Source of the DNA: Eledone cirrhosa
Taxonomy: Eukaryota
Assembly: GCA_964016885.1 (NCBI GenBank)
Contig: OZ024742.1
Span: 118,606,001-118,670,000 of the forward strand
Direction: 5' to 3'
Length of the DNA stretch: 64,000 nucleotides
Shown: positions 20,914 to 52,692 of the stretch, in pieces
Position numbering within the stretch: the first letter of the stretch is position 1
How the letters are laid out: each line of letters opens with the position of its first letter
The notes under the pieces: generated by a model
Seen by the model: only the letters and a program-made list of their open reading frames with translations
Told to the model about the DNA's origin: nothing
Database searches by the model: none
Position numbers and translations under genes: made by a program

Positions 20914-22972
20914 CATTTTAATGGATTTCTGTCGAATCACCTACAAACTTAGATAAAGACATTTAATGGAACGGGAAGATTTTTGCTCGACCGGTTTGAC
21001 AACAATATATTTTTTTTTTTTGGTTAAACAATAAATCCGTATAAAAGAGGAATATATATAAATATTTCCGAGTCACTCACCTTGTATGTTGACCAGTACA
21101 GTAAGTAATATTATAAGTGAAAAGATTTATGTCTTCTGCTTTCGATCAACCGTGGTTGGAAATGGTAGACATCGCATGGACATCTGCCAATCATTAACTA
21201 ATTAATTCTTAATTATTGGCTCACTTGCAGATTTTGGTCGGTAGCCGAACCGTGCTAATGCCAAACAAACAGAGCGTTTGACTATTTAAACAATTTTAGA
21301 AAGAAGGAAAAGAATACGTAACAAATAAAATTGTTACAGTTAAAAGAACTATTCTTGTTAGAGAAGACTGGATTCAAAGCATTCTATAACTGTCTGAATT
21401 AATTGTAGAGAGACTTCATTATTTTATCTAATGTACTGGACCTTTTTAGTATGGAGAGCTTGTAAACTCAAATGACTCGATATTACAGGTATTTAATTTC
21501 ATAGAAGTTAAAAGAAAAGTCGCACCTTATCACTTCTTATACAAAATTCTTGCAGAATTTCGCAATCTAGGTCACATTTTCAAAAGCATCTTCCTCTTTA
21601 TATGTTTATCTTCCTCGTGAGATTTCATTAACATGATTCTCTCTTGGAATTGCAATGACTGAATAAAATTTCATCTCTAATTTATACTATGTACCGATGT
21701 AAAAATGTAAACATTAATGGTGGCTCATCAGAAACTGAACAGTATTGAACAAAATGCAAGGCAGTATTTAATTGCACTCCTTTACATTTTGAGTTCAAAT
21801 CTTCACAAGAAAGATTTTATCTTTCATCCGTCTTTTGTAGATAAAATAGAAGACAGTCAAGTACTGAAGTCGCTATAAACATGTATTCCTCAAAAAAGCT
21901 GTAATTTCGTTAGAAAGCCTTATTACTTTAAAAAAATTGAAATTGTAAACGTTACAATTGCTGCTTAAATATTTCGATATATTTATCATGAATGCAGTTG
22001 AGATTTCTTAAAGATGAAGTTTAGTGGGTTGGTGATGTGTAAATTTATTGTTGCATGGTAAGATTTAATTCATTAACAAGTCCTCTCAAATCACTTCCTA
22101 CTAACACATTTTCTCTCATTCTCCTCCTCTCTCTCTCTCCCATACACACTCACTCACTCTCTCTCCCTCTCTCTCCCTCACCTCTCAATCTCTAAACTCT
22201 CTCTTGCTCTCTCTCACTCACTCATTCTTTCTATGTACTGACTCGTCTAATGCTAAGAAACGCACCGAAAACCTATATATATATATATATATATTGTTAT
22301 ACTTTGGGAGGGTCATGTTGCCAATAAGAAACACACGCACCAGTTGCTTTCACTTCAATTTATTATAATAAATTTATAAATTTAGGAATTTATAAATTTC
22401 CGGTTGGTTGGTTGGTTCCACAACCAGATGGTTATTTATATATTGTCAAAGTTCTTTCGTCACACATTCTCTGACCTCTTCAGTGACTGGGGATTCTTTT
22501 CTTTGTTTTTGTGCCTCTCCTTTGTTCTGTCCTGCGCCATCTTGTTTCTGTGTGTGTGTTGTGTGCTCAGTCTGCGCATGCGCCACATCCGGGTGTCTGT
22601 GTGTGTTTATATTCGTTTATTTATTTGTTTATTTACATGTTACTGGCTGGTTGTTTGTTCTATGTGTGTGTGTGTTTTCATTTTGTCCTTAATTGTAAGT
22701 TGTGATGTTGCTGTTCCACTCATGTTTTCTATTTAATTTTGGTTGTAATTCTTTTATGTTTATTGCCTCTGTGATTTGTCTAAAGATTGCGTCTTTTCTG
22801 TGTGTAGATTCTATTTTTATTTCTATGTTCTCTAATTTACCCTTATGTTCTATTTTAGCATGTTGGTAGAGTACAGATGATTCTTTACTATCTTGAAGGT
22901 CTCGCCAGTGTTCATTTATCCGTTCCCCTACACTACGAGCTGTCTCACCTATGTACACTATATTTTTATCTC

Positions 22973-23396
22973 AACACTTATTAGCAAGACATACCCTTTT
23001 CAAAGACCCCCCTGTATAGATAAGAAATGTATAACCTGTAAATTAAGCCCCCATATTAACTGTAAAACTAGAAATGTAGTATATAGCATAAGATGTACTG
23101 AAGGACAATGTAGAGATAAAAATATAGTATACATAGGTGAGACAGCTCGTAGTGTAGGGGAACGGATAAATGAACACTGGCGAGACCTTCAAGATAGTAA
23201 AGAATCATCTGTACTCTACCAACATGCTAAAATAGAACATAAGGGTAAATTAGAGAACATAGAAATAAAAATAGAATCTACACACAGAAAAAACGCAATC
23301 TTTAGACAAATCACAGAGGCAATAAACATAAAAGAATTACAACCAAAATTAAATAGAAAACATGAGTGGAACAGCAACATCACAACTTACAATTAA
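22973..23396 (+). pseudogene. Penelope GIY-YIG endonuclease domain (C-terminal fragment of the ORF, open frame)
   Basis: PCIDKKCITC..NCKTRNVVYSIRC..C..VYIGETARSVGERINEH..RQITEAINI..LNRKHEWN. Mirror copy at 22689-22958 (-). Confidence 0.9.
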
Positions 23397-23598
23397 GGAC
23401 AAAATGAAAACACACACGCACATAGAACAAACAACCAACCACTAACATGTAAATAAACAAATATATAAACGAATATAAACACACACAGACACCCGGATGT
23501 GGCGCATGCGCAGACTGAGCACACAACACACACACAGAAACAAGATGGCGTAGGACAGAACAAAGGAGACGCACAAAAATCAAAGAAAAGAATCCCCA

Positions 23599-23641
23599 GT
23601 CACTGAAGAGGTCACAGAATGTGTGACGAAAGAACTTTGAC
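23599..23641 (+). ncRNA. Minimal type I hammerhead-like motif of the Penelope pLTR (copies at 22445-22487 - and 34118-34160 -)
   Basis: GTCA-CTGAAGA-g-GTCACA gaatg TGTGAC-GAAA-G aa C-TT-TGAC. Confidence 0.65.
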
Positions 23642-23857
23642 AATATATAAACAACCATCTGGTTGTGGAACCAACCAACCGGAAATTTATAAATTCCTAA
23701 ATTTATAAATTTATTATAATAAATTGAAGTGAAAGCAACTGGTGCGTGTGTTTCTTATTGGCAAGATGACCCTCCCAAAGTATAACAATATCAGTTTCAA
23801 CACACGTTTTCAGATAAAGAATCTTGCTAAACAAATTCAGAAACGATATATATATAT

Positions 23858-24616
23858 ATATATATGAATGTATATATAGTGTATTTTGCAATACACTGTA
23901 TGCTTAATTAAAAGCATTTCGAAGACTTTACGCTATTGTTTTAGAGTAGTGACAGTCTCACTTACTTTAAATGTTCAGCAAACAGGGGAGATAAAGCTGA
24001 CAGAGCTCTGTTTCGCACTTTTTGGTGCTTATCAAAGCTAACTACTCCGCCTGTTTGCTGAAAATCATGAATGTTTGATTCTTATAGAATTCTAGTAATA
24101 ATCAGGAACTGATTATACAGAGCGGTTGCCGGTCAAGCAGAAATTGTAAATTAGAATTGGTGCTCTGAAATAGCGATATATATATGAATGTATATATAGT
24201 GTATTTTGCAATAATATTATGCTTTTAATTAAGCTCTGTATAATCAGTTCCTGATTATTACTAGAATTCTATAAGAATCAAACATTCATGATTTTCAGCA
24301 AACAGGTGGAGTAGTTAGCTTTAATAAGCACGAAAAAGTGCGAAACAGAGCTCTGTCAGCTTTATCTCCTCTGTTTGCTGAAAATTTAAAGTAAGTGAGA
24401 TTGTCACTACTCTAAAACAATAACATAAGGTTTTCGAAATGCTTGCAAAATACACTATATATACATTCATATATATATCGCTATTTCAGAGCACCAATTC
24501 TAATTTTCAATTTCTGCTTGACCGGCAACCGCTCTGTATAATCAGTTCCTGATTATTACTAGAATTCTATAAGAATCAAACATTCAGCAAACAGGTGGAG
24601 TAGTTAGCTTTGATAA
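23858..24616. mobile_element. Retrozyme-like ~300 nt HHR-bearing repeat: about 1.1 units on - followed by about 1.3 units on +
   Basis: Direct repeats at 23858/24177 and 24234/24532. 24234-24616 is the reverse complement of the preceding block. HHR motifs at 23995-24039 (-), 24317-24361 (+) and 24606-24616 (+, truncated). Confidence 0.8.
23976..24060 (-). ncRNA. Type I hammerhead ribozyme, U3:A8 core variant
   Basis: AGCT-TTGATAA-GCAC caaaaa GTGC-GAAA-CAGAGCTCTG-TC-AGCT, with extended stem I CAGCAAACAGG.GGAG / CTCC.CTGTTTGCTG. Confidence 0.8.
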
Positions 24617-25682: not shown

Positions 25683-27437
25683 CTACGAAATTTATATACA
25701 TTGACCAGTTCACGCGCGCACGCTTACTCACATATCCACTCTCTCACAGCAGCCAGCCTCTCACGCCCATCCTTCAAGCATACGAACACACCTAAATGCG
25801 CGCGCGCATACGCACACACACACTCTCTCACATGCACGCATACACACATGTCCACCCGGCATATACAGTGATTACCTCCCTTCCTAAACCAATCTAACGC
25901 GTAAGATACCCGTCGACAAGCAAAACTCCAAAATAGCTGACTGAATATGCACGTGTTTTTTTTTCCCATGTTTTTCTCATTTTTCCTGTTTCTTCTTCTC
26001 ACTGTTTATTGGGCGTTTTTGTTTTTACCCCCGCCCCTCCTTTTTTTCTTCTTTTTTTTTCTCTTTTATGCATTTATATTTGTGTTTATCAACGATGGAT
26101 TGACAGTATCGATAGAGAGTCGGACAGCAAAGAGTTACGGCCCTTTATGATCTGAGTTCAAATCCCGCCGAGGTTAACTTTGCCTTTCATCCTTACGGGG
26201 TCGATAAAATAAAGTACCAGTAATGTACTGAGATAATTGCTGGCCTTGTGCCAAAAGTAGAAACAATTATATTTGTAATGTTATTTTAAACATTTATAAT
26301 GTTATTTACCCAAATTAATTGTCTTTTATTTCTAACTCTATTTTCTGTGTCCGAACGGTTAAGACTCTGTTCCTGCTATTTCAAGCGTTAAACTAATGTA
26401 TTTCTTTAATGTACTGTGTAGATGCTTTGTTACTTCTGTTTACTTTTTACATACATCTTTAATCAGACATAGATGTTCTGACTATACATAAGAAATTATT
26501 AATTTAAATAATATATAATAATAACATTATAGATAAAAGAAATAGAAATATAATAATACTATTTCTATCACAATGCAGTTGTAACCTAAGCAAACATGAA
26601 AGAACAGCCGAACTGTCATCGCCTCCATCTCTCTGGACCTCCCTATCTCTCCGTATGGTGAACAAATGGGGTCCCACGTGCTGGCCTCCCCACAGCCCCG
26701 GCGGACAGAATGGAGAAGGCGTTGTCAATACTCATCTTTTTCCATTTCTTAGAGGGTTCTAAACCCATTATGAGATTCTTTATATATATATGAGTAAGTA
26801 TGTTTTGAAACAGCAAGCGAGTTTGAAATTAGAAATAGAAGCTTTCGCAGTATGTTATATATATATGGGTTGAGGAAGGCGAGACTGTGTGGTTACTAAT
26901 AACGAGTATTAGAAGGTAAGGGGAATTAAACAAGAGACCCAATACTAGACTGGTACTTTTTTATTGACCCCGAATGGATGAAAGACAAAGTTGACCTTGG
27001 TGGGGTTTGAACTCAGAGAGCTGAAACGAATACTGCAAAGCATTCTATCCGACGTTCTAACGACTCTGTCAATTTGCTGCCTATTATTATCGTATAATAT
27101 TGGACAGAGATTCCTTTTTTATGGTGGTGAGATATGGTATATGGTGGTGGTGGTGGTGGTGATGATGGTGGCGGCGGCGGTGGTGGTGGTGGTTTTGAGA
27201 GGTTTTGTGTCAATAACGATGACGGATTGATTGATATTTATTCACTATTACACAAGTGAAAATTATAGAACAATGTTTATTTCTCTATAAGTCTACGATT
27301 TATTATATCTTTATTTTTATTTTTCATTTACAGGTATACTCGTTCGAGGACTTTTAAATCGTAAAAGACAACGCCTTCTTCATTGTCGACAATCGATATA
27401 TAAAAAATTTACCAATTTTGATGATCCCCAGTCTTCA

Positions 27438-27786
27438 ATGGACGACGTTAAAGTACAATCGGGTGACAACACTTCAGAAACTCTTAGTATACAAAGAAGC
27501 GTTTCATACGCTGAGGCCATCAATGAAATCAGCTTTAACATTTCTGATCAAACTTCCACTAATGGAAGTGTCTTTACTATTTCCAATGATATTAGTGGTC
27601 CGAAATCAAACCCTGGGTCAACAAGATCCATTCCTTCAACTACGGTACGGTCGACTGATTGCTTGGTTGACGAGCAAAGAGATTCGTGGGACAACAAAGT
27701 TCAGTATTTATTAGCTGCCATCGGTTTAGCTGTCGGTTTAGGTAATGTCTGGAGGTTTCCTTACCTAGCTCAAAAAAATGGAGGTG
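27438..27786 (+). CDS. SLC6 Na+-dependent neutral amino-acid transporter (SLC6A15/17/19-like), coding exon 1
   Basis: [36 protein letters not shown] is the SLC6 TM1 signature. GTAAG donor at 27787 (phase 1). Acceptor AG at 27332-27333 upstream of the ATG. Confidence 0.92.
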
Positions 27787-28230
27787 GTAAGTTTTCGTAA
27801 TTTCTAAAATGCTCTTTTAAATTATTAAATAGTTCTTTATATTCCATGATTCGTACATTTGTTAGTACCCACAAAATTTCATGTAACGACCAAATATGTG
27901 GAATGTTGTGTGTATATGATCAATTTACATATATAAAGACAAAAACAATGATAGTATTGTTTATATTATTGCTATGTAAATGTTTTATAAAGCACTTATA
28001 ACCCTGTTAAGTTTAACAGTGTAGGAATTACGTAACGAACTGGATCCTTGAGTCACTGCTTGTCTTTAGTTTTCGAGTATTTATTCAAGGCGGTAGTGGG
28101 TTCCTTTTTAGGGATATTATGCTAATTTCGGGATCATGGATAAATTTCAATTTTTCACCAATAACAAAATAAGTATAATACGCTTCGTTATACAAATGAG
28201 GAAATAGTTTTATAATACTAATGAGGAAAT

Positions 28231-28500
28231 AAGCGAAGGTGCATGGCCTAGTGCTTGGGATGTTGGTTGTACGATTGTAATGCCGTCGGTACGATTCTTG
28301 GGTTGGGTTATATTTTGTATTCTTGAGCAAAACCCTTCATTTCACTTTGCTCTAGTTTACTCAGCTGAAAATTAGCACCAATAGTTGCTGGGAGTTCAAC
28401 CCTGTGATGGACTGGCATCCAGTCTTGTACTGTCAATCGCTAAACACCACGGAAATTGAGATAACCACCAACCTAACAAGTCTTTGGGTTTGAGACAGAC
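28231..28500 (+). mobile_element. Second tRNA-type SINE family (copies at about 57480-57810 - and 62715-62860 -)
   Basis: TGGCCTAGTG A-box-like sequence and conserved TCTTGAGCAAAAC..TTTCACTTTGCTCTAGTTTACTCAGCTG core. Confidence 0.6.
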
Positions 28501-28803
28501 TTAAGACTTTTAAAATGAGAAAACGCTAATGTCCAATCCTTCCATTTGAAACTAGTTTGGATGACCACAGTGTGTTGGTGTAAATATCTTAATGAAAATC
28601 TATTTAAATGTTATTAAATCAGCCGGGATACAACAAGGGTCATTTTTTGTTCATTAATATAATTATATATCTGGCTAAATGACAAGTTTAAAAAGTTATT
28701 TCAAAATTAATGTTCTTATATAGTTTTGATTCTCTACCCCATTTTCTTCTTTTTTTTTCATATAGAGAATGTAACAAAATTATATTATTTTATTTCATTG
28801 CAG

Positions 28804-29093
28804 GTGCCTTTATAGTTCCCTATGTTCTAATGTTGTTTATTGAAGGTCTTCCAATATTCTTTTTGGAAGTCGCTATCGGTCAACGCATGCGTAAAGGCCC
28901 CGTCGCTACATGGGGTCAAATTTCTCCATATTTAACAGGTATTGGATATTCGTGTGTAATGGTGTCCTTCCTGGTTAGTATTTACTACAATACAATTATA
29001 TCATGGTGCCTCTATTATTTAGTTATGAGCTTTCGTTCGGAACTACGGTGGTCAAGCTGTCCAAATGACACTAGAACTTCAAACGAATGTAAC
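28804..29093 (+). CDS. SLC6 transporter coding exon 2
   Basis: CAG acceptor; GAFIVPYVLMLFIEGLPIFFLEVAIGQRMRKGP..IYYNTIISWCLYY..WSSCP; GTAAG donor. Phases fit (1 in, 0 out). Confidence 0.95.
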
Positions 29094-29419
29094 GTAAGTT
29101 TTTTCTTCTCTCCTTTATTTGTATTTTACTTTCTTTGTTTGTAAATATTTCATGAGATTGTTTTTTAAAGTATAAGAAAGAATTTTTTTTTATTTGAGTC
29201 TTAACGAAGCTCTGTCCTAAACTTATAAAATCCCATTTCTTTATTCTCTTGTACTAGAAAACCAATACAGCGTGAGTCATATATAAATAATGAAAGATCA
29301 GTGGATTAGATCTACAACTGAAAATGGTTAGCAGCCAACTAAATCATGTTCAGGTTTTGCTCACTTGAGTTACTACTAAAGATTTTTGAAAGATTATGTA
29401 TTTTGTAAGCGGTTTGCAT

Positions 29420-29990
29420 CGTTATCACTACCAACATGTTAATGCCCTAGTAACATTATCACCTAATAACATTATTACTGCAAACACATTAATGTCTTAG
29501 TAACATTATCACCACAAACATTGTTATGGTAAGATTATCATTGCCAAGACACTAATGTCCAGGTAGTCTGAGTTCAAATCCCGCCGAGGATAACTTTGCC
29601 TTTCATCCTTACGGGGTCGATAAAATAAAGTACCAGTAATGTACTGGGTAATTGCTGGCCTTGTGTCTAAAGTAGAAACAATTATCACTACCAGCATTTT
29701 AATGTCCTGGCAACATTATTTCTACCAGCATGTTAGTGTCCTAGCAACATTAGCACTACCAACATATTAATGTCCTAGTAACAGTATTTCTACCAGCATA
29801 GTAATGTCCTAGTAACAGTATTTCTACCAGCATATTAACGCCCTAACAACATTATTTCTACCAGCGTGTTAATGCCCAATCAACATTATCATTACTAGAA
29901 TATTAACGTCCTAGCATGATTATAACTACCAACGTGTTACATCTTAGCAACATTATTACTAGTAAACAAATAATATTCTAGCAACATTTA
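29420..29990. repeat. ~33-34 bp minisatellite interrupted by a SINE fragment
   Basis: Unit resembles AACATTATCACTACCAACATGTTAATGTCCTAGT. Confidence 0.8.
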
Positions 29991-30849
29991 AGGGTGTTAG
30001 ATTGGCAGAATTTGTGCACCGTCGTATAAAGTATTTGTGCTGGCTCTTTACATTCTGAGATCAAATCTCGCTGAAGTCAACTTTGCTTTTTATGCTACCG
30101 GGATCGATAAAATAAAATACCAACTATGTACTGGGTTTAATCAACTTTACCCTTCACCCAAATTTGCTTTCTTTGAGCCTAAATTAGAAATCAATATTCT
30201 AACATCTGCAGATAATTTGAACAACCATCTAACTGCCATTTTTTGTTGACCTTCAATTATATAGCAAAACGGGAAAAAGAGGTAAGCAAGTCCTGATGTT
30301 ATTTTAAATAACAATAAAACTGGTTGGTTCGATGTCCATCCCAAGTTGCCAAAAGAATTCTTGTGGTCCAAATTTCACAAGACTAATTCACAGCGTGACT
30401 CAACATGTACGGATATGATTCCGTATTTGCATATTCTTTACTAGTAAAGGCACGATAGAACAGGGATGTTATATGGTACAGCATTTAACCTTCTGAAACA
30501 GTTCGTTGCATCAAGGAGATATTTTAACAAAATATTCCATTCACAATTATAAAATTATGATCACAGATATTTTTCAAAGTATAGAATTTTCGGTGAAGAA
30601 ATTAGTTTTCGCGTTGAGGTTTTCACAAAAATTACTACAATTGGTAAGAAGACACTTGTAAATAAGATGTATCTGATAACTTTGTGATATATACATAGAG
30701 AAAAATAAAGAAAATATTTTTTTCGTTACGAAAAGATATTTTTCTTTGATAATGAGGCTACCTATATGTTTGTCGTATATAATCATATTATTATCACCAT
30801 CACGTCGAGTTTCCTCGGACAACGTTGATAACTACACTTATTCACTTGT

Positions 30850-31990
30850 CCCTATCTCGCATGGCTTCCACGAGTTCATTCTTTCTAAGATTCAAACCCG
30901 CTCCAGAAACATAGCTTGAGACTGACCTCTTTTTCTTCTACCATATGTGGGTTATCATAACAGTAGCTGGTGTAATGCGCCTCCCTGATCTCTTCGCCAT
31001 GCGTGACCTATAAGACTTAGACATCTAGCCTTTATGACGTCTGTAATCGGTCTCAGGTTGACGTATAAAGACTCGTTTGATCTGTGCTCCCTCCAAGATG
31101 AATTTTGCACTTTCCTCCACTCCAGATACAAGCTAGCTTTCAACTGTTGATCGAAAGAATTTAACCTTTAGTTTGGTGTTCAAGTTTGATTTCCAAATGG
31201 TATCCATTTGTTTGCAACTGTCCAGGCTAAGTTAATTCTAGTGTTCATGTCTTTTGCTGAACCAAGATACCTAAAATCCTCAACTCTTTTTAGGTAATTT
31301 CCATTTTGTGACACAATATCACCCTCTTTCTGTTTGTAGATAATATATTCCGTTTTCTCATTTATGTGAAGTCCAAGTGTTTCAGCAGCCCATTCCACCG
31401 TCTCTAGCAACATCTGTGCTTTTTCGCAGGCGTTTGATAAGAGTGCGATATGAACTGCAAAATCAACATCAATTATTATTTCAGGGTGTCTAGTACTGCG
31501 TCAAGTATGTAGCGTGAATCTTGTTTGATGTGCATAATATGTAGCTTGTCTCATTACATAGTCGAGTATAAATATGAAGAGGAACGGAGCTAGTGTATCT
31601 CCTTGAAGAACACTCAATTTCAATTTGAAGAAGTTCATTTCACCATTAGGGGACAGTACTTTTGCTTCCGTACCATCGTAGAGAATACCTATTGCTGTCA
31701 CAATTTGCAACGGATCTCTATACGCTTCATTTACTTGTTTGACTTTACCACGATGAATGGAATTGAAAGAGTTACTAAAATCAATGAATGTGATAACAGC
31801 TGGAAGGTTCTTTGCTTTTACTCCTTCGAGGAATTTTCTAAGAGTTAGAATTTTCCCCAGCGTTGATCTATTTGAACGAATCCATTTTGGTTCATGCGAA
31901 GAATTGGTTCTAAATGAAGTTTAATTCTAAAGAGTAGCATTTTGTTGTAGATTTTAGTTGATATTACTGTGAGACTAAATCCACAATCAT
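30850..31990 (-). mobile_element. Decayed RTE-clade LINE RT fragment, intronic
   Basis: VLQGDTLAPFLFIFILDYVMR, AETLGLHINEKTEY, VEDFRYLGS and LIGHAWR motifs. Confidence 0.85.
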
Positions 31991-32019
31991 TTTTTATATA
32001 AACATATAGTTTATATATA

Positions 32020-32302
32020 GGCGGCGAATTGGCAGAGTCGTTAGAACGTCGGATAGAATGCTTTATGCTATTCGTTCTGGCTCTCTGAGTTCAAATCCCG
32101 CCTTTCATTTTTTCGAGGTCGATAAAAAAAGTACCAGTCTAGTACTGGCGTCGATTCTTCCTTTCTCTTTCTCATTTCCTCTCTCTTACTTTCTATCTGT
32201 CTTTGAAAGAAATCTGCTGTACTCCTGGAGAGGGATGGACTCCGCCAGGCTTAAAATGCCCAAGAAACGCCGTATGTCAATACAGTGCCCCTACGACTCT
32301 CT
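32020..32302 (+). mobile_element. SINE, same subfamily as 14508-14880
   Basis: Shared head, core and tail. Confidence 0.75.
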
Positions 32303-32342
<40 letters not shown>

Positions 32343-32364
32343 CTTTCAATCTTTTTCGTTACAG

Positions 32365-32526
32365 CTAGCTGGACCGACAGCGTACTTTTGGTACAGATCA
32401 ACTTTAGATGTCTCCGCGTCTATTGAAGAATCTGGGTCATTGCAAATACACATAGAATTGTGTCTGTTCTTCGCTTGGTTAATAGTATTTTTGTGCATGA
32501 TTAAAGGAATATCTTCTTCTGGGAAG
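32365..32526 (+). CDS. SLC6 transporter coding exon 3
   Basis: ACAG acceptor; LAGPTAYFWYRSTLDVSASIEESGSLQIHIELCLFFAWLIVFLCMIKGISSSGK; GTGAG donor. 162 nt, phase 0. Confidence 0.95.
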
Positions 32527-32577
32527 GTGAGTTTTAAGTCAATGCATTACCGATACATAGGTGTTGTTTTTTTAGGC

Positions 32578-32623
<46 letters not shown>

Positions 32624-32665
32624 CATAAGCATGTATATGCAGATGTAAATTTATAAATATGCGTT

Positions 32666-33908: not shown

Positions 33909-34210
33909 TCGTTTCTGAATTTGTTTAGCAAGATTCTTTATCTGAAAACGTGTGTTGAAACCGATATTGTTATACTTTGGGAAGGTCATGTTGCCAATAA
34001 GCAACACACGCACCAGTTGCTTTAACTTCAATTTATTATAATGAATTTATAAATTTAGGAATTTATAAATTTCCGGTTGGTTGGTTGGTTCCACAACCAG
34101 ATGGTTGTTTATATATTGTCAAAGTTCTTTCGTCACACATTCTGTGACCTCTTCAGTGACTGGGGATTCTTTTCTTTGTTTTTTGTGCCTCTCCTACGCC
34201 ATCTTGTTTT

Positions 34211-34519: not shown

Positions 34520-35400
<881 letters not shown>

Positions 35401-35401
35401 C

Positions 35402-35484
<83 letters not shown>

Positions 35485-35490
35485 CATATG

Positions 35491-35523
<33 letters not shown>

Positions 35524-35606
35524 GTATATATATGTATATATATGTATATATATATGTATATATATATATATATGTGTATATATGTATATATATGTATATA
35601 TAAATG

Positions 35607-35748
<142 letters not shown>

Positions 35749-35862
35749 TGTGTATATATATATATATGTATATATATATGTATATATATATATATATGTG
35801 TATATATATATATATGTATATATATATGTATATATATATGTATATATATACATATATATATG

Positions 35863-35923
<61 letters not shown>

Positions 35924-35946
35924 GTATATATATACATATATATATG

Positions 35947-36007
<61 letters not shown>

Positions 36008-36024
36008 GTATATATATACATATA

Positions 36025-36066
<42 letters not shown>

Positions 36067-36146
36067 GAAAGATTTGAATGGATACAGCATTACAACACAA
36101 CGGAAAATACTGTATATATATGTATATATATATATATGTATATATA

Positions 36147-36198
<52 letters not shown>

Positions 36199-36234
36199 AA
36201 TATATATATATGTATATATATATATGTGTGTGTG

Positions 36235-36265
<31 letters not shown>

Positions 36266-36266
36266 G

Positions 36267-36299
<33 letters not shown>

Positions 36300-36314
36300 A
36301 AATATGTGTGTGTG

Positions 36315-36395
<81 letters not shown>

Positions 36396-36481
36396 GTGTA
36401 TATATATATATATGTATATATATATGTATATGTATATAGTTATGTATATATATGTATATAGTTATGTATATATATATATGC

Positions 36482-36593
<112 letters not shown>

Positions 36594-36662
36594 GCATATA
36601 TATATATACATAACTATATACATATATATACATAACTATATACATATACATATATATATACA

Positions 36663-36768
<106 letters not shown>

Positions 36769-36769
36769 C

Positions 36770-36828
<59 letters not shown>

Positions 36829-36885
36829 CGCATATATATATATACATAACTATATACATATATATACATAACTATATACATATAC

Positions 36886-37183
<298 letters not shown>

Positions 37184-37214
37184 GTGTATATATATATATA
37201 TGTATATATATGTG

Positions 37215-37250
<36 letters not shown>

Positions 37251-37254
37251 TGTG

Positions 37255-37291
<37 letters not shown>

Positions 37292-37398
37292 GTATATATA
37301 TATGTATATGTATATATATGTATATATATGTATATATATATATATGTATATATATGTATATATATGTATATATATATATATGTATATATATATGTATA

Positions 37399-37445
<47 letters not shown>

Positions 37446-37456
37446 GTATATATATG

Positions 37457-37488
<32 letters not shown>

Positions 37489-37537
37489 GATATGTATATA
37501 TATATATGTATATATATATGTATATATATATATGTAT

Positions 37538-37704
<167 letters not shown>

Positions 37705-37705
37705 C

Positions 37706-37827
<122 letters not shown>

Positions 37828-37828
37828 G

Positions 37829-37879
<51 letters not shown>

Positions 37880-37880
37880 G

Positions 37881-37967
<87 letters not shown>

Positions 37968-38140
37968 GTATATGTATATAGTTATGTATATATATGTATA
38001 TAGTTATGTATATATATATGTGTATATATATATATATATGTATGTATATATATATATGTGTATATATATATATGTATGTATATATATGTATATATATATA
38101 TGTGTATATATATATATATATGTATGTATATATATATATG

Positions 38141-38207
<67 letters not shown>

Positions 38208-38363
38208 ATGTATATGTATATATATATATATATACATATATATACATATATATATATATATATGTATATATATGTATATATATGTATATATATATACATA
38301 TATATACATATATATACATATATATATATATATATGTATATATATGTATATATATATATACAT

Positions 38364-38445
<82 letters not shown>

Positions 38446-38464
38446 GTATATATATATATGTGTA

Positions 38465-38495
<31 letters not shown>

Positions 38496-38524
38496 ATGTA
38501 TATGTATATATATATATATATACA

Positions 38525-38562
<38 letters not shown>

Positions 38563-38653
38563 TGTATATATATGTATATATATATACATATATATACATA
38601 TATATACATATATATATATATATATGTATATATATGTATATATATATATACAT

Positions 38654-38762
<109 letters not shown>

Positions 38763-38877
38763 CATATATATATATACATACATATATATATATATATATA
38801 TACACATATATATATATACATACATATATATATATATATATACACATATATATATATACATAACTATATACATATAC

Positions 38878-38935
<58 letters not shown>

Positions 38936-39098
38936 GATGAAGGACTCACTTTTTCATATATATATATATATGTATATATATATGTATATATATGTATATA
39001 TATATTTATATATATGTATATATATATATGTATATATATATGTATATATATGTATATATATATATATGTATATATATAGATATGTATATATATATATG

Positions 39099-39145
<47 letters not shown>

Positions 39146-39186
39146 GTATATATATATGTATATATATATATATGTATATATATATG

Positions 39187-39221
<35 letters not shown>

Positions 39222-39222
39222 G

Positions 39223-39335
<113 letters not shown>

Positions 39336-39336
39336 T

Positions 39337-39401
<65 letters not shown>

Positions 39402-39482
39402 ATATATATATATACATGTGTGTGTATATATATATGTATATGTATATAGTTATGTATATATATGTATATAGTTATGTATATA

Positions 39483-39529
<47 letters not shown>

Positions 39530-39530
39530 G

Positions 39531-39629
<99 letters not shown>

Positions 39630-39858
39630 GTATATATATATGTATATATATGTATATGTATATATATGTATATATATGTATATATATATATATATATGTA
39701 TATATATGTATATATATGTATATATATGTATATATATATATATGTATATATATATGTATATATATATGTATATATATGTATATATATGTATATATATATA
39801 TATGTATATATATGTATATATATGTATATATATATATATATGTATATATATATGTATA

Positions 39859-39901
<43 letters not shown>

Positions 39902-39902
39902 G

Positions 39903-39955
<53 letters not shown>

Positions 39956-39966
39956 GTATATATATG

Positions 39967-39998
<32 letters not shown>

Positions 39999-40054
39999 GA
40001 TATGTATATATATATATATGTATATATATATATGTATATATATATATATGTATG

Positions 40055-40091
<37 letters not shown>

Positions 40092-40128
40092 GTGTGTGTA
40101 TATATATATATATATACATGTATATATA

Positions 40129-40298
<170 letters not shown>

Positions 40299-40299
40299 G

Positions 40300-40376
<77 letters not shown>

Positions 40377-40459
40377 ATATTATATATATATGTATATATA
40401 TATATAGATATGTATATATATATATATGTATATATATATGTATATATATATATATGTAT

Positions 40460-40537
<78 letters not shown>

Positions 40538-40542
40538 ATATA

Positions 40543-40637
<95 letters not shown>

Positions 40638-40639
40638 TA

Positions 40640-40696
<57 letters not shown>

Positions 40697-40703
40697 TTAT
40701 GTG

Positions 40704-40758
<55 letters not shown>

Positions 40759-40839
40759 ATATATATATATATATGTGTGTATATATATATGTATATGTAT
40801 ATAGTTATGTATATATATGTATATAGTTATGTATATATA

Positions 40840-40880
<41 letters not shown>

Positions 40881-40881
40881 G

Positions 40882-40976
<95 letters not shown>

Positions 40977-41025
40977 GTATATATATATGTATATATCTGT
41001 ATATGTATATATATGTATATATATG

Positions 41026-41056
<31 letters not shown>

Positions 41057-41169
41057 GTATATATATGTATATATATGTATATATATATATATGTATATAT
41101 ATATGTATATATATATGTATATATATGTATATATATGTATATATATATATATATGTATATATATGTATA

Positions 41170-41254
<85 letters not shown>

Positions 41255-41255
41255 G

Positions 41256-41308
<53 letters not shown>

Positions 41309-41319
41309 GTATATATATG

Positions 41320-41351
<32 letters not shown>

Positions 41352-41407
41352 GATATGTATATATATATATATATGTATATATATATGTATATATATATAT
41401 ATGTATG

Positions 41408-41486
<79 letters not shown>

Positions 41487-41491
41487 ATATA

Positions 41492-41730
<239 letters not shown>

Positions 41731-41763
41731 ATATATATATATATATATAGTTATGTATATATA

Positions 41764-41802
<39 letters not shown>

Positions 41803-41929
41803 ATATATATGTGTATATATATATATATATGTATGTATATATATATATGTATATATATATGTGTATATATATATATATATATGTATGTATATATATATAT
41901 GTATATATATATATATGTATATATATGTA

Positions 41930-41960
<31 letters not shown>

Positions 41961-42131
41961 ATGTATATGTATATATATATATATATACATATATATACAT
42001 ATATATATATATATATGTATATATATGTATATATATGTATATATATATACATATATATACATATATATACATATATATATATATATATGTATATATATGT
42101 ATATATATATACATTACATATACATATATAC

Positions 42132-42198
<67 letters not shown>

Positions 42199-42312
42199 CA
42201 TACATATATATATATATATATATACACATATATATATATACATACATATATATATATATACACATATATATATACATAACTATATACATATATATACATA
42301 ACTATATACATT

Positions 42313-42372
<60 letters not shown>

Positions 42373-42431
42373 GATGAAGGACTCACTTTTTCATATATAT
42401 ATATATATGTATATATATATGTATATATATG

Positions 42432-42466
<35 letters not shown>

Positions 42467-42583
42467 GTATATATATATATGTATATATATGTATATATAT
42501 ATATATGTATATATATAGATATGTATATATATATATGTATATATATATGTATATATATATATATGTATATATATATGTATGTG

Positions 42584-42670
<87 letters not shown>

Positions 42671-42671
42671 T

Positions 42672-42740
<69 letters not shown>

Positions 42741-42835
42741 ATATATATATATATAGATATATATATATATGTGTGTATATATATATGTATATGTATATAG
42801 TTATGTACATATATGTATATAGTTATGTATATATA

Positions 42836-42882
<47 letters not shown>

Positions 42883-42883
42883 G

Positions 42884-42928
<45 letters not shown>

Positions 42929-43195
42929 GTATATATATATATATGTATAGTTATATATATATATATGTATATTATATATGTTATATGTAATATATGTATA
43001 TATATGTATATATATAATATATATATATATATGTATATATATGTATATATATGTATATATATGTATATATATATATATGTATATATATATGTATATATAT
43101 ATGTATATATATGTATATATATGTATATATATATATATATATGTATATATATTTATATATATGTATATATTTATATACTTATATATATTATATAT

Positions 43196-47688: not shown

Positions 47689-49617
47689 TTGTTATCAGGT
47701 GACTTTAAATATAGACCAAATCTGCTCTCATTTGGATAGTCTATATTATCCAGAAATTTCAATCAACTGATCTTACTAGAGTTATCTTCCAGATTTATAT
47801 ATATATATCAAGGGTAAAACAATATATTTGTATGTAGAGTTATTTATGAGAGTATATAAATGCCATATATTTTCAGAGCGAGCTCAATGTTTTATACAAT
47901 GTTGGTTGGAAGAATAAGAAATACTTTAAAGGAAAAAGATATGGAAAGAAAGACAGAGCATATATAAGCTAATAGAAAGATGGAATCGGAATTCTACATA
48001 AGTTCATTGCTTTACATATACACACACTTATGTATGGATATATTTAAACAAGCCAAGGCAGTTTTTATCTACTAATGGTGAGAGGAATCTTTGTTGATCG
48101 AAGTTTTTCAACTCACTATGATACGTTACTGTATTTATAAGCAGAACAAAGCATGTCTCCATCCGACAGATATTTTTGGCACTATCAATCAATCGATCAA
48201 TACAACCATTTACTTGTTTAGCAAACTTTTCAGTTATTTGTTGGCAACACCTCTATAGCTATTTTATATATTTTATTTCTTCGATAATTATGTCTTTAGA
48301 AGTCTCTGGTTACATTCCAGATTCACCATTATAGGATTTTGGTGAAGCGATTTATTATTATTAAGTAACTCACTTATGTTTTCCAAACTCCAACGACCAT
48401 TGTTTTGGTCTGTGTTTTGAAAATAAATTTTGTTTATATAATGATCATAAGTAATTGTTTCAATTGAATAAACAATAGTTTTCGAATTTACGCACGTTAT
48501 TTTTACCGAACAACATCATTCCCAACAATAGTGGTTCGGAGATATCAAACCTGTTACCGTGATGAAAAAAAAATGGAAAATATTCTCCTCAGCTTATGTT
48601 TATTCAGTCTATTTTCTCTTGTCGTTTTTAGAACTAGGGAAGAAGAAAAAAAATTATATGAATTTAAATAAAGCATCCCAAAAGTATACATATTTACAGA
48701 AACTATATCGACAACGAGCGAACGAATAAGCCTCTAAGCGGTCGATCTACCTGCTGGAAATAGTAACCAAATTTCACGCAAAACGTACCTCGCTGTTTTA
48801 AAATAAGGAAGGACATTAGGTAATATAGTTGTAAACATAAAAAAAAACCCCAGAATTGTCACGACTTAAACGTCTTAGATAATAGGCCTGATAATGAAGG
48901 CTGATCTCGGTATAAACAACAACAGTAATGTAATCTAAAGTTTGTGTAACTAATCCAGAACGGAAAACCATCTCCGTGGGATGCGAGAACAACCTTTTAT
49001 TGAAGTGTTATTATTCAGCTTAAGGTAAACACGTGATGTTGTTTGTACACAAGCCAAACCTATGTTGGTGTGGGCGGTTATCTACGGAGAGAAATGCTTT
49101 AAACGGAATGAGTTAGAAAATTAATTATTGATATTCAGAATATATGATTTTCTGCACATATTTAACATATTTATTTCTAAATGTAATTCTTACAAAAAAA
49201 GAAAAAAAACTTTTTGATAAATTTTATATTTGTTGACAGACTTGTTATATTGAAGATTTATTATTATAGAAATCTTCTTGAACAAATATTTGTCATGAAA
49301 TTCAAAGATGTATTAGTTTTATTGACGTGAAGAAAATAGTGATATAAAAGTTTAATAAGTTTTATTAAATAGATTTGCAAAATCTGTCGGAATCGCGAAG
49401 GAAATGCACTTCGGTTCTGTAGAAATAGTGCGAAAGAAGAAAATCTAGGTATCATTGCGCGACGTAACCCCCGCCATTATTGTAGAGTACCTGGCTACAT
49501 GGTGATTACTTTTCCCCTCTCAAAGTTAACTTACACTTTGATATATCTAGTAATTCTTTTTTTTTTTTTTTTCTGTGATAAAAACTAGATATAAACGCCT
49601 AATCGAAGATTAATGCC

Positions 49618-51511
49618 ATGGACGGATACTCTGATGATATGGACAAAGATATTAATCGGTTTAAAGAGGATTTAAGTATGTTCGAAGTACCCTCACCACA
49701 AACATACTGGCAGGAGGTGACAGCTAAAAAATCGGATACATCGGCTGGAGAAGAATTTAAATGCAAACAGAGCCTATATATGGCACACATGCAACAAAAA
49801 CAGGCTGCACAAATGAAATTTCATAAAACGCTTGTAAGTTCATCTGGTTTCGGCTCCGGTCTTGAACACCCGTCTAACTTGCTTCATCACCACCAACAGT
49901 TACATCAACAATTACTACACATCCGAGGAGATTCGAAACCACCGATTCCGATCCTCCTTGGCCAGTCAAATATGGGAGCAAATTCTAATATGAAGCCAGT
50001 AATGTCCATATTTCCTCAGCCAGGTAGTAACTTATTGCCTTTTCATCCTCCGTCTATCACAGGTTCACCTCTTGGAGAACCACCATCGTCCTTGATGCCA
50101 TTTCCTCGTTATCCGGACACGATAGGGTTAAAAAATTCCTCCTCTGCAACTTCGTCTTTTCCAAATAGTACTATTCCGCCACCGCCACCACCTCCCTCAT
50201 CTGCAGCCTTGGTTGCGGCAGCCGCTGCACATGCTTCTCCACCACTTCTACCTCTTCCAGGTATTGTAATGACGACATCCACTTCGACTCCAACTATGAT
50301 ACCTATACAGATAAATTCTAACCAACCTTTGTCTAATACTGCTAATACCAGTGCTAACACCAGATCACAACAATCTGGTTCGACATTTTCTAGTCCTCGG
50401 TCAAGTCTAGGTAGTGGTGGTGGAGCTGATTCTAAAAATTCCAGTCCACGTACCAGTGTCATCGGACCTCCAGCTCCGCCTCTACCGTTGTCTGTAGTTT
50501 ATGATCAACGATTTGGTAGTCCACGATCTAGTATTGCCAGTTCGAAATCTAGTATTAGTGCTGGTTCAATAGATTCCAAACAATCTAGTCCAAGAGCCAG
50601 TCTGACTGGTGTTTTATATGATCGATACCCCAGTCCTCGAACTAGTATTGTTATGAGTAACAACGAAAGGTCTTTCAGTTCCCATCCGGACACCATACTT
50701 AATACGAACACTTACTCATCTCATGTTAATCACCAGGCTATGATGGTACAAAATACCAATGCAGGAGGCGGTTCTCGATCAATTTTAACTGACAGTAGAT
50801 TTAATGAACCAGCTCCACATATTTACAATGAGCTTAAATATCGAACTCATCCTATAATTGTATCTTCTCCTTCAACTGATTTAACATCTGATTCTATAAC
50901 ACAGCCAATTTATGCTAATACTAACCAGTTTTTACAAACATCTGTAAATAATACTACACAAAGTCAAAGTCCTTATGGAAGTATACCTATTCAAATTACT
51001 GCCCACAACATTCCTAGGCCTCCTGTACCAGGTAATATTGCTGCAATGCATTTACCATTATATTATGAAACAATACCTCCGAAAAAGAATGGATTTTCAG
51101 ATGCTGAAGAAAAACTTGCTGCCTTAACACAACAATTAGAAAATGAAATGCGTATATCAACAACTCGTAAACCAGTTGATATTCCTAAGGAACCCCCTCC
51201 ACCTTATCATGGACCTCATAAAACAGAGCCAATGCCTGGTAGTACATCATCAAGAGTTCCTTTGAAATATGCCAATGCACCAACAAGTGTTGCAAATGAA
51301 GATATTGCATCTAATCAGTTTTCTCAGCCCACTTCGACATTTATTCAACCGACTTCCGAATCTCTTCCAAAATTATCTGTCTCGCCACATTTAACTTATC
51401 AAGTGACCCCAGGACCAAGTAAAGGTCCATCTGAAGCAGAAAAGAAACTAGCAGCTTTAACACAACAGCTAGAAGATGACATGGAAAACAATCCTCAGGG
51501 AGAATATTATG
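49618..51511 (+). CDS. jub: Ajuba/LIMD1/WTIP-family LIM-domain protein, first coding exon (pre-LIM region)
   Basis: 631-codon open exon, Pro/Ser-rich, with SPRSS repeats and PPPPY. It ends GPSEAEKKLAALTQQLEDDMENNPQGEYYG, resembling the pre-LIM1 segment of WTIP/LIMD1 (PSAAERRLEALTRELE...DYFG, recalled). GT donor at 51512, phase 1. LIM exons are not seen in the window. Confidence 0.8.
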
Positions 51512-52692
51512 GTAGGTTCGAAATCATTCATTCAACCTAATTTTGTTTTCAGAAACATCAGACACATGTATTGTTTTTGTTTTTTTTACATACATTATCA
51601 TGCATGTTTATTGGGATTTGTGTCAACTAATTTAATAATCTACCATATTGAAATAGCATTGTCCATAATATTGAATGTGAATAATATATTTTGTGATTTA
51701 CGTACAACTGTCGTTTGAATTAAACGATATTTCCATTTAACATGAAGCCTGTATATGTATTATCAATATTTTTGTTTTTACATGGTGAACAAATTTTATA
51801 TTTTTAATGTCAGTGAATATAAAATGATGGAGTCGAGTATAAAGAAAATATTGGCTTAACAGCTTGTTTAATGTTTCGTATTTCGATCCTCTTCCGGTGT
51901 TTCTTTGTGTCTGACTAGGGCACTTAATTCTTTAATTCCGGGGAAATTCATTGCAGTTGTTTAACATAACTGACACCCATGCTTCGTAACTCATTTTTTT
52001 TTGTCAATATTAACTATCGAGTATGTATGACTATTTGTAGTGTAGATGTTCTTTGACAAAATAGATTTCATAAAAATGTAAACTCCTTTAATGATAACTA
52101 TTATTGTATATATGGAGAAAATAATAAAAGAAAAAGCTGTAAGGTTGTCACAGAATTCTGCAAGTATACAATAATATACAAGGGCAGGTCAACAGGATTA
52201 AGCCTAATTTTAGCCCTGTCTATTATGATTGTCACATGTGTCTACATAATTTATTGAAGTAAGACTAAAAGCCCATAGTTTGGGATTTGGTGATCACCTT
52301 AAACTATCATTTCAACAACAATCTCAAAACTGTATATCATTACTCCACTGTATCTTCAACTTTTACACTGATTTATTATTCGAGTGCGTCATCTTTACGA
52401 TGTATAAAATGAATGACGATCGAATTGAGACAGTGTAGAATAGAGAGGGCTCTTTCGTCACGCCGAGGATAAGATAAAAGTTGGTGTTAAGAAGAGTACC
52501 CAGTTATATATACCCTCCTAGACGAAGGGCAGTAACTTCAAATAAAAACTAACTCCGATCGTAACTACACATCAAACTCATGCCAGCATGGAAAACCGAT
52601 ATAAAATGATAAAAAATATCCTGTACAAACATGAGGGTTAATTTTGAATTATAACTTTTCGTCTAAATTTCAGAGATGAGGAATTATCATTA

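Follow-up and report, generated by a model that had tools for sequence, protein, structure and literature searches.

A retrozyme-like repeat family of Eledone cirrhosa with a U3:A8 hammerhead core and insertion ends resembling those of Penelope-like elements

Introduction

Natural hammerhead ribozymes with a U3-A8 pair in the core have been reported, and are active in vitro according to work cited there (Perreault et al. 2011, PMC3088659). Around 1,300 minimal hammerheads of this kind were described in the Cercyon Penelope-like elements (PLEs) of Schistosoma mansoni (Cervera and De la Pena 2014, PMC4209133). Likewise, non-LTR retrozymes and their circular RNAs, including a mollusc case, have been documented (Cervera and De la Pena 2020, PMC7229834). 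Host ligases close circles of this kind. Non-LTR retrozymes have been argued to derive from PLEs, by a mechanism that is left open, and one of nine Xenopus retrozyme dimers was cleaved in vitro (Li, Clavereau and Pollet, bioRxiv 10.64898/2026.07.22.740005). Their mobilisation is a hypothesis built on co-occurrence and similarity (PMC7229834; bioRxiv 2026).

The insertions left by EN+ PLEs consist of a partial tandem with an inverted, 5'-truncated copy and a tail, and show a bias for (TA)n (Craig et al. 2021, PMC8557442). The PLE protein nicks both strands, the tail reflects two internal sites at which its reverse transcriptase (RT) starts, and transposition in vitro is independent of hammerhead cleavage (Frangieh et al. 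2024, PMC11167929).

Here we analyse a 321-nt repeat of Eledone cirrhosa which, judging from its sequence, we read with a probability of about 0.65 as a non-LTR retrozyme family with a type I hammerhead fixed for U3:A8, likely copied into (TA)n DNA by the RT-endonuclease of an autonomous PLE. To the hypothesis on retrozyme mobilisation this family, hereafter family A, adds a Penelope-specific insertion signature. We did not find it described in the literature on hammerheads, on Penelope or on octopus and other cephalopods, whose supplements may list such families. The U3:A8 core itself, put forward as a novelty in an earlier note on this DNA, had precedents both among natural hammerheads (PMC3088659) and within Penelope hammerheads (PMC4209133); what is new is the switch of the 3:8 pair within one lineage, together with insertion-end evidence that ties a retrozyme to Penelope enzymes.

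Results

Layout of the locus

In the window (the whole stretch of DNA analysed, 64,000 nucleotides of contig OZ024742.1), the repeat spans positions 23856-24616 and is one insertion of the 321-nt non-coding unit, in two arms with their 3' ends outward:

23845..23865, no strand: (TA)n tract at the left end of the insertion, which also terminates a neighbouring Penelope-like remnant
23856..24232, minus strand: left arm, 377 nt (1.2 units), with its 3' end at the first fixed end of the family (site A), entering the (TA)n tract
24233..24616, plus strand: right arm, 384 nt (about 1.2 units), carrying deletions of 22 nt and 9 nt
24479..24504, plus strand: 'tail', the stretch that separates both fixed 3' ends, with site A near 24478 and site B near 24504, internal in the right arm

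The unit had been described as repeated head-to-tail and then inverted; the ca. 320-nt unit and both arrangements are indeed there, in the form of two arms of about 1.2 units each and not of three units. The (TA)n tract is likely the target site of the insertion, and sites A and B, which bound the tail, would by analogy with the PLE studied by Frangieh et al. (PMC11167929) be RT start sites. The right arm stops abnormally within the core of its second hammerhead, at a point that matches neither fixed 3' end, and this atypical end probably stems from a later deletion or insertion. The locus has no ORF of 120 aa, and its architecture is not LTR-like. The locus and its neighbours are repetitive in four contig sets of undefined kind, a result with no bearing on expression.

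Several other features were observed in the window. The Penelope-like neighbour (22291-23791) is a 5'-truncated insertion with long inverted arms, which shares its terminal (TA)n tract with the retrozyme and holds a GIY-YIG remnant (22881-23396). Its minimal C3:G8 hammerhead, at 23599-23641(+), has a mirror copy at 22445-22487(-), and a further copy of this motif lies at 34118-34160(-). Segments 27291-32628 and 49603-51540 hold exons of a sodium:neurotransmitter symporter (SNF) gene, two of them backed by a search, and an open frame of 645 aa, low in complexity, that has no match in Pfam. A (TA)n-type array some 8 kb long, with an assembly gap after it, is located at 35294-43195. Matches to Rfam microRNAs were discarded as artefacts of the inverted arms and of microsatellites.

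Hammerhead copies in the window

The two arms contain one complete hammerhead, one mutated copy and one stub:

23976..24060, minus strand: complete type I hammerhead with distal stem, internal loop, stem I, stem II (CAAAAA loop) and palindromic stem III
24029..24035, minus strand: its core, U3-U4-G5-A6-U7-A8-A9 in the sequence (TTGATAA; U3:A8 pair)
24000..24011, no strand: 12-nt palindrome forming stem III, with 4 bp and a tetraloop in the monomer and 12 bp in the dimer (predicted -20.1 kcal/mol)
24296..24380, plus strand: second hammerhead, with the G5A core TTAATAA (24321-24327); HH9 score 19.5 bits
24585..24616, plus strand: truncated third copy, comprising the 5' strand of stem I and the core only

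The type I fold proposed earlier is borne out at 23976-24060(-), where stems I and II, the palindrome and the GUC triplet are all in place. Every invariant position is present except for the paired 3:8 swap, and the predicted cut falls at the GUC site, between 23999 and 23998. Loop II is identical to the HH9 consensus, the match to Rfam Hammerhead_HH9 (E 0.0003-0.0014) scores 26.8 bits where the gathering score is 52, and folding of the region gives z = -7.2. The in vitro evidence for activity of U3:A8 cores reportedly goes back to Przybilski and Hammann in 2007.

The middle copy does read TTAATAA, as had been stated, and it has an additional mismatch in the distal stem. G5 is essential for hammerhead activity, and this copy is likely dead through ordinary neutral decay after insertion, because changes at the invariant core positions of inserted family A copies accumulate neutrally (21 observed, 17 expected); these core substitution counts revealed no selection on individual genomic copies. 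The third copy ends directly after A9 and lacks stems II and III and the cleavage site, so it is not a ribozyme. The TTGATAA hammerhead that the earlier note counted in two copies thus comes down to one complete U3:A8 motif, the copy at 24610-24616 being a stub. Two consecutive units with complete hammerheads, the pattern by which Li et al. (2026) define active retrozymes, are absent from the window locus, whose same-strand hammerhead pair is formed by the G5A copy and the truncated one. The window locus is a dead, decayed copy of its family.

A family fixed for U3:A8

We searched a genome of 3.0 Gb in 1,796 contigs with an anchor pattern that left seven core positions free, which yielded 449 matches to family A. 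The family is fixed for U3:A8, the pair found in 435 of the 449 anchored copies; the six copies without U3 all retain A8 and the eight without A8 all retain U3. Scans restricted to CUGANGA miss the family, as had been anticipated, because C3:G8 occurs in 0 of 449 copies. A 20-mer covering stem III and the cleavage site retrieved 1,109 exact matches. We selected by hand 40 stretches from the first 100 of these, mainly outside the list from the first pattern; among the 85 further hammerheads picked in them by the 3' half, TTGATAA was present in 51 and CTGATGA in none.

From cleavage site to cleavage site, the unit measures 320-328 nt in six genomic tandem copies, and 301 nt in one with a deletion, with a GC content of 0.32-0.35. 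Stem II occurs in two compensatory forms, and G10.1-C11.1 is retained. Long arrays exist, with 17 and 11 hammerhead matches spaced by ca. 320 nt. Family A thus resembles the metazoan non-LTR retrozymes in being a short, tandem, non-coding unit (150-450 bp in those elements) with one type I hammerhead and low GC (under 45-50%), and also in its thousands of copies, its organisation from monomers to long arrays and its co-occurrence with PLEs. Unlike in the known retrozymes, its core is U3:A8. At the level of the family, where these genomic features are found, the window repeat appears to function as a non-LTR retrozyme that is mobilised by enzymes of Penelope elements.

These two arrays, L213 (G000:C1:82389000-82397000) and L214 (G000:C1:93461500-93467500), are diverged and run head-to-tail; they are candidate source loci or local amplification products. 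A motif scan of metagenomes for family A gave 0 matches.

A sister family holds both states of the 3:8 pair

Family B, first met beside an endonuclease remnant, has a unit of 315 nt with a mean identity of 73-74% to family A. A B-specific anchor retrieved 236 C3:G8 copies, 104 non-C3 copies and 106 non-G8 copies. Among the matches listed, with 100 of the 104 non-C3 rows and 100 of the 106 non-G8 rows counted by hand, there were at least 81 U3:A8, 12 C3.A8 and 8 U3.G8 copies, the others being scattered; 3:8 mismatches are rare, about 20 among the matches listed. Positions 3 and 8 are associated in family B with an odds ratio of 199, which reflects few events because the copies are kin and not phylogenetically independent. 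The earlier note had called for such a genome-wide tabulation, and would have abandoned the idea of a compensatory U3:A8 pair if most copies carried CTGATGA with positions 3 and 8 varying independently; the counts in both families, with joint switching in B, speak for the idea instead.

Covariation was also found in stem I, stem II and the distal stem. In a set of 23 hand-picked, related copies of A and B, nine of the 24 hammerhead pairs change on both sides, 96% of the cells are paired, as against 30-46% in slid controls, and 3:8 is paired in all 23 chosen rows. The cell-based pairing measures exceed all 500 shuffles, and the number of covarying pairs does not stand above them (59 of 500 shuffles reached it). 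Since nine of the 24 pairs covary, the data support a change between C3:G8 and U3:A8 that would be compensatory and not decay.

We regard as very improbable the explanation that the motif is a decayed hammerhead, or a hairpin that arose by chance within a satellite or MITE-like repeat, with U3 and A8 as two unrelated transitions. Both changes are, as it would predict, GC-to-AT transitions in an AT-rich repeat, and the Rfam score is under the gathering threshold, but it conflicts with the joint switching in B, with the covariation in three stems and with the same U3:A8 pair in an unrelated PLE family (L104, see below). A-to-I editing was rejected as a driver of the switch, as the substitution spectra of the two families disagree, with an excess of A>G in A (p 0.02) and of T>C in B (p 0.003).

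Because A is fixed at U3:A8 while B holds both states, we infer at least two paired 3:8 switches, from or back to the canonical pair. The A/B trees, from which, as from the substitution analyses, four antisense or unrelated alignments were excluded, are unrooted and lack resolution inside B, so they do not give the direction of the switch. The oldest sampled B subfamily is U3:A8, with 7.9% divergence from its own majority (n=6) versus 2.8-4.1% for C3:G8, and characters in common with family A, counted as a test of direction, amount to 12 versus 11. One copy intermediate between A and B (L167, near 1479), with C3 followed by a core deletion, may mark a further subfamily.

The covariation in the core is as in the Cercyon PLEs (PMC4209133) and in the hammerheads of PMC3088659, and Cercyon also shares the superfamily context. 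Unlike Cercyon, family A has a ribozyme of canonical size with an HH9-like loop II, an internal loop and a 12-nt palindromic stem III, and it is a non-autonomous tandem unit, with both core states amplified within one lineage (A/B).

Insertion ends suggest a role for Penelope enzymes

We retrieved 73 loci by hammerhead match and dropped four that overlapped, which left 69 for a survey of insertion ends. Two-arm insertions with tails outward were found at 45 of the 69, with 3' ends fixed at unit positions ca. 269 (A) and ca. 295-298 (B), about 27 nt apart; end A is paired with end B in 31 of the 45. TA-rich DNA adjoins 46 of 50 B ends and 35 of 52 A ends, versus one of 12 other ends. The same two fixed 3' ends were found in family B. 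Family A therefore shows the hallmarks of Penelope insertion, namely a partial tandem with an adjacent inverted, 5'-truncated copy, a tail and a microsatellite target bias. Given the inverted arms, the two fixed 3' ends and the (TA)n targets, the family likely moves on a Penelope-type retrotransposon enzyme, and the tandem arrays and insertion ends together uphold the earlier description of the repeat as retrozyme-like and Penelope-dependent.

As with EN+ PLEs (PMC8557442, PMC11167929), the insertions have this structure, a tail at one end and no discernible target duplication; they differ from those elements in lacking an ORF and in a tail of ca. 27 nt, versus 30-40. Most family A copies are dispersed two-arm inverted (TA)n insertions with a PLE tail, an arrangement that we did not find described for retrozymes in the available portions of that literature. 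An in vitro PLE system already exists in which both predicted RT start sites are testable.

An arm is longer than one unit in 51 of the 69 loci, reaching 833 nt in the longest, and two same-strand hammerhead 3' halves one unit apart are present in 11 of 69 other loci. Of the 5' ends of arms, 0 of 115 in A lie within 3 nt of the cleavage site (about 2.5 expected if uniform), as do two of 104 in B. Because arms exceed one unit and no 5' end in A falls at the cleavage site, the template is continuous across the cut site, as a ligated circle or an uncut multimer. Rare alleles shared within family A insertions are enriched 6-10 fold, which both the circle and the multimer models predict.

The retrozyme reading suggests the following course of events. 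Tandem source loci would be transcribed through more than one unit, and the U3:A8 hammerhead, aided by contacts between loops I and II and probably by a dimeric stem III, would cut at GUC and release monomers. These would be circularised by a host ligase, and the circle would rest in the predicted inactive fold. A PLE protein would then nick both strands of a (TA)n target and prime cDNA at the two internal sites ca. 27 nt apart, producing the two arms; the cDNA would pass through the cleavage site on a template that may be the circle or an uncut multimer. The fold would be selected in the source lineages, and inserted copies, including that in the window, would decay neutrally.

More tentatively, we put forward an active circular-RNA lineage in which the 3:8 pair flipped two or more times, perhaps with a return to C3:G8 from an older U3:A8, and in which the insertion ends record an RT start at two sites on a circle, with copying past one turn. 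Were this true, the ends would constitute direct genomic evidence for how animal retrozymes move.

How much cleavage matters

It is somewhat unlikely, in our estimation, that the repeat is instead mobilised by Penelope enzymes with the hammerhead as a weak or protein-dependent passenger, an uncut multimer as the template, no circles, and U3:A8 kept for folding or protein binding, or by AT-biased drift with mild selection. Uncut RNA would account no less well than circles for the passage of cDNA across the cleavage site in most arms, and the anole PLE mainly uses unprocessed RNA, its hammerhead cleaving only with protein (PMC11167929). For the A monomer, the predicted minimum-energy fold differs from the active one and is more stable by 3.5 kcal/mol, and the core is also blocked in the predicted folds of A circles; this alternative fold may represent a resting state or may indicate poor activity.

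Family B offers further evidence of this kind. Its C3.A8 group (L170, L171 and L211, two of them also G5A) clusters weakly (96/77, not a starred branch), with a core that is probably inactive and yet was copied a few times. Positions 10.1-11.1 in B are A-U, U.U or A.A, the A.A mismatch being found in its U3:A8 subfamily. From this cluster and this subfamily it follows that weak cores can still spread, and the modest amplification of mismatched cores means that cleavage may not be essential. Against a mere passenger speak the joint switching of 3 and 8 in amplified lineages, the retention in family A of G10.1-C11.1, of a loop II identical to HH9 and of two compensatory forms of stem II, and the palindromic stem III, retained at three different lengths. 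Sister subfamilies with C3:G8, U3:A8 and rare mismatches make up a natural series on whether cleavage matters.

Candidate autonomous partner and other hammerhead elements

Among 10,596 GIY-YIG candidates in the genome, 150 were scored and 50 were examined. None of these 50 loci had the unit as a terminal repeat, and the single unit match among them lay in an independent insertion of family B, next to the remnant of an endonuclease. That these 50 loci yielded no autonomous partner similar in sequence also speaks against the retrozyme reading. The lack of the unit from their terminal repeats weighs against the unit being a pseudo-LTR or 3' fragment of an autonomous PLE whose copies are ordinary 5'-truncated insertions, as do the long pure arrays and the arms that re-enter the 321-nt unit head-to-tail and not an ORF; the unit repeats into itself and lacks the ORF with RT and GIY-YIG of an autonomous PLE. 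The insertion architecture, on the other hand, is that of truncated PLEs such as the window neighbour at 22291-23791. We consider this origin improbable.

One PLE, L104 (G000:C1:145869500-145877500), has a 938-aa ORF with RT and GIY-YIG between repeats 98% alike, and is apparently intact and autonomous. Each of its terminal repeats carries a compact U3:A8 hammerhead with core TTGAAAA and a GUA site, which has 6,819 matches in the genome, with U3 and A8 in all of the first 100 listed. This family also inserts into (TA)n with two ends, and the last seven bases of its second end are identical to those of family A, with no similarity beyond them. L104 is a candidate helper of family A. As a source of the unit it was rejected, since the score of the local alignment was reached by 196 of 200 shuffles. 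In all, U3:A8 is the core of more than 7,000 hammerhead copies (435 + 81 + most of 6,819), from at least two unrelated families, in the Eledone cirrhosa genome, and CUGANGA-limited scans would miss them.

More hammerhead repeats, of more than one sequence type, were observed at L104:467 and 958, L091:2740, L131:2363 and L146:1961; in several of them stem II is long and the core, CCGATGA or CCGAAGA, carries U4C.
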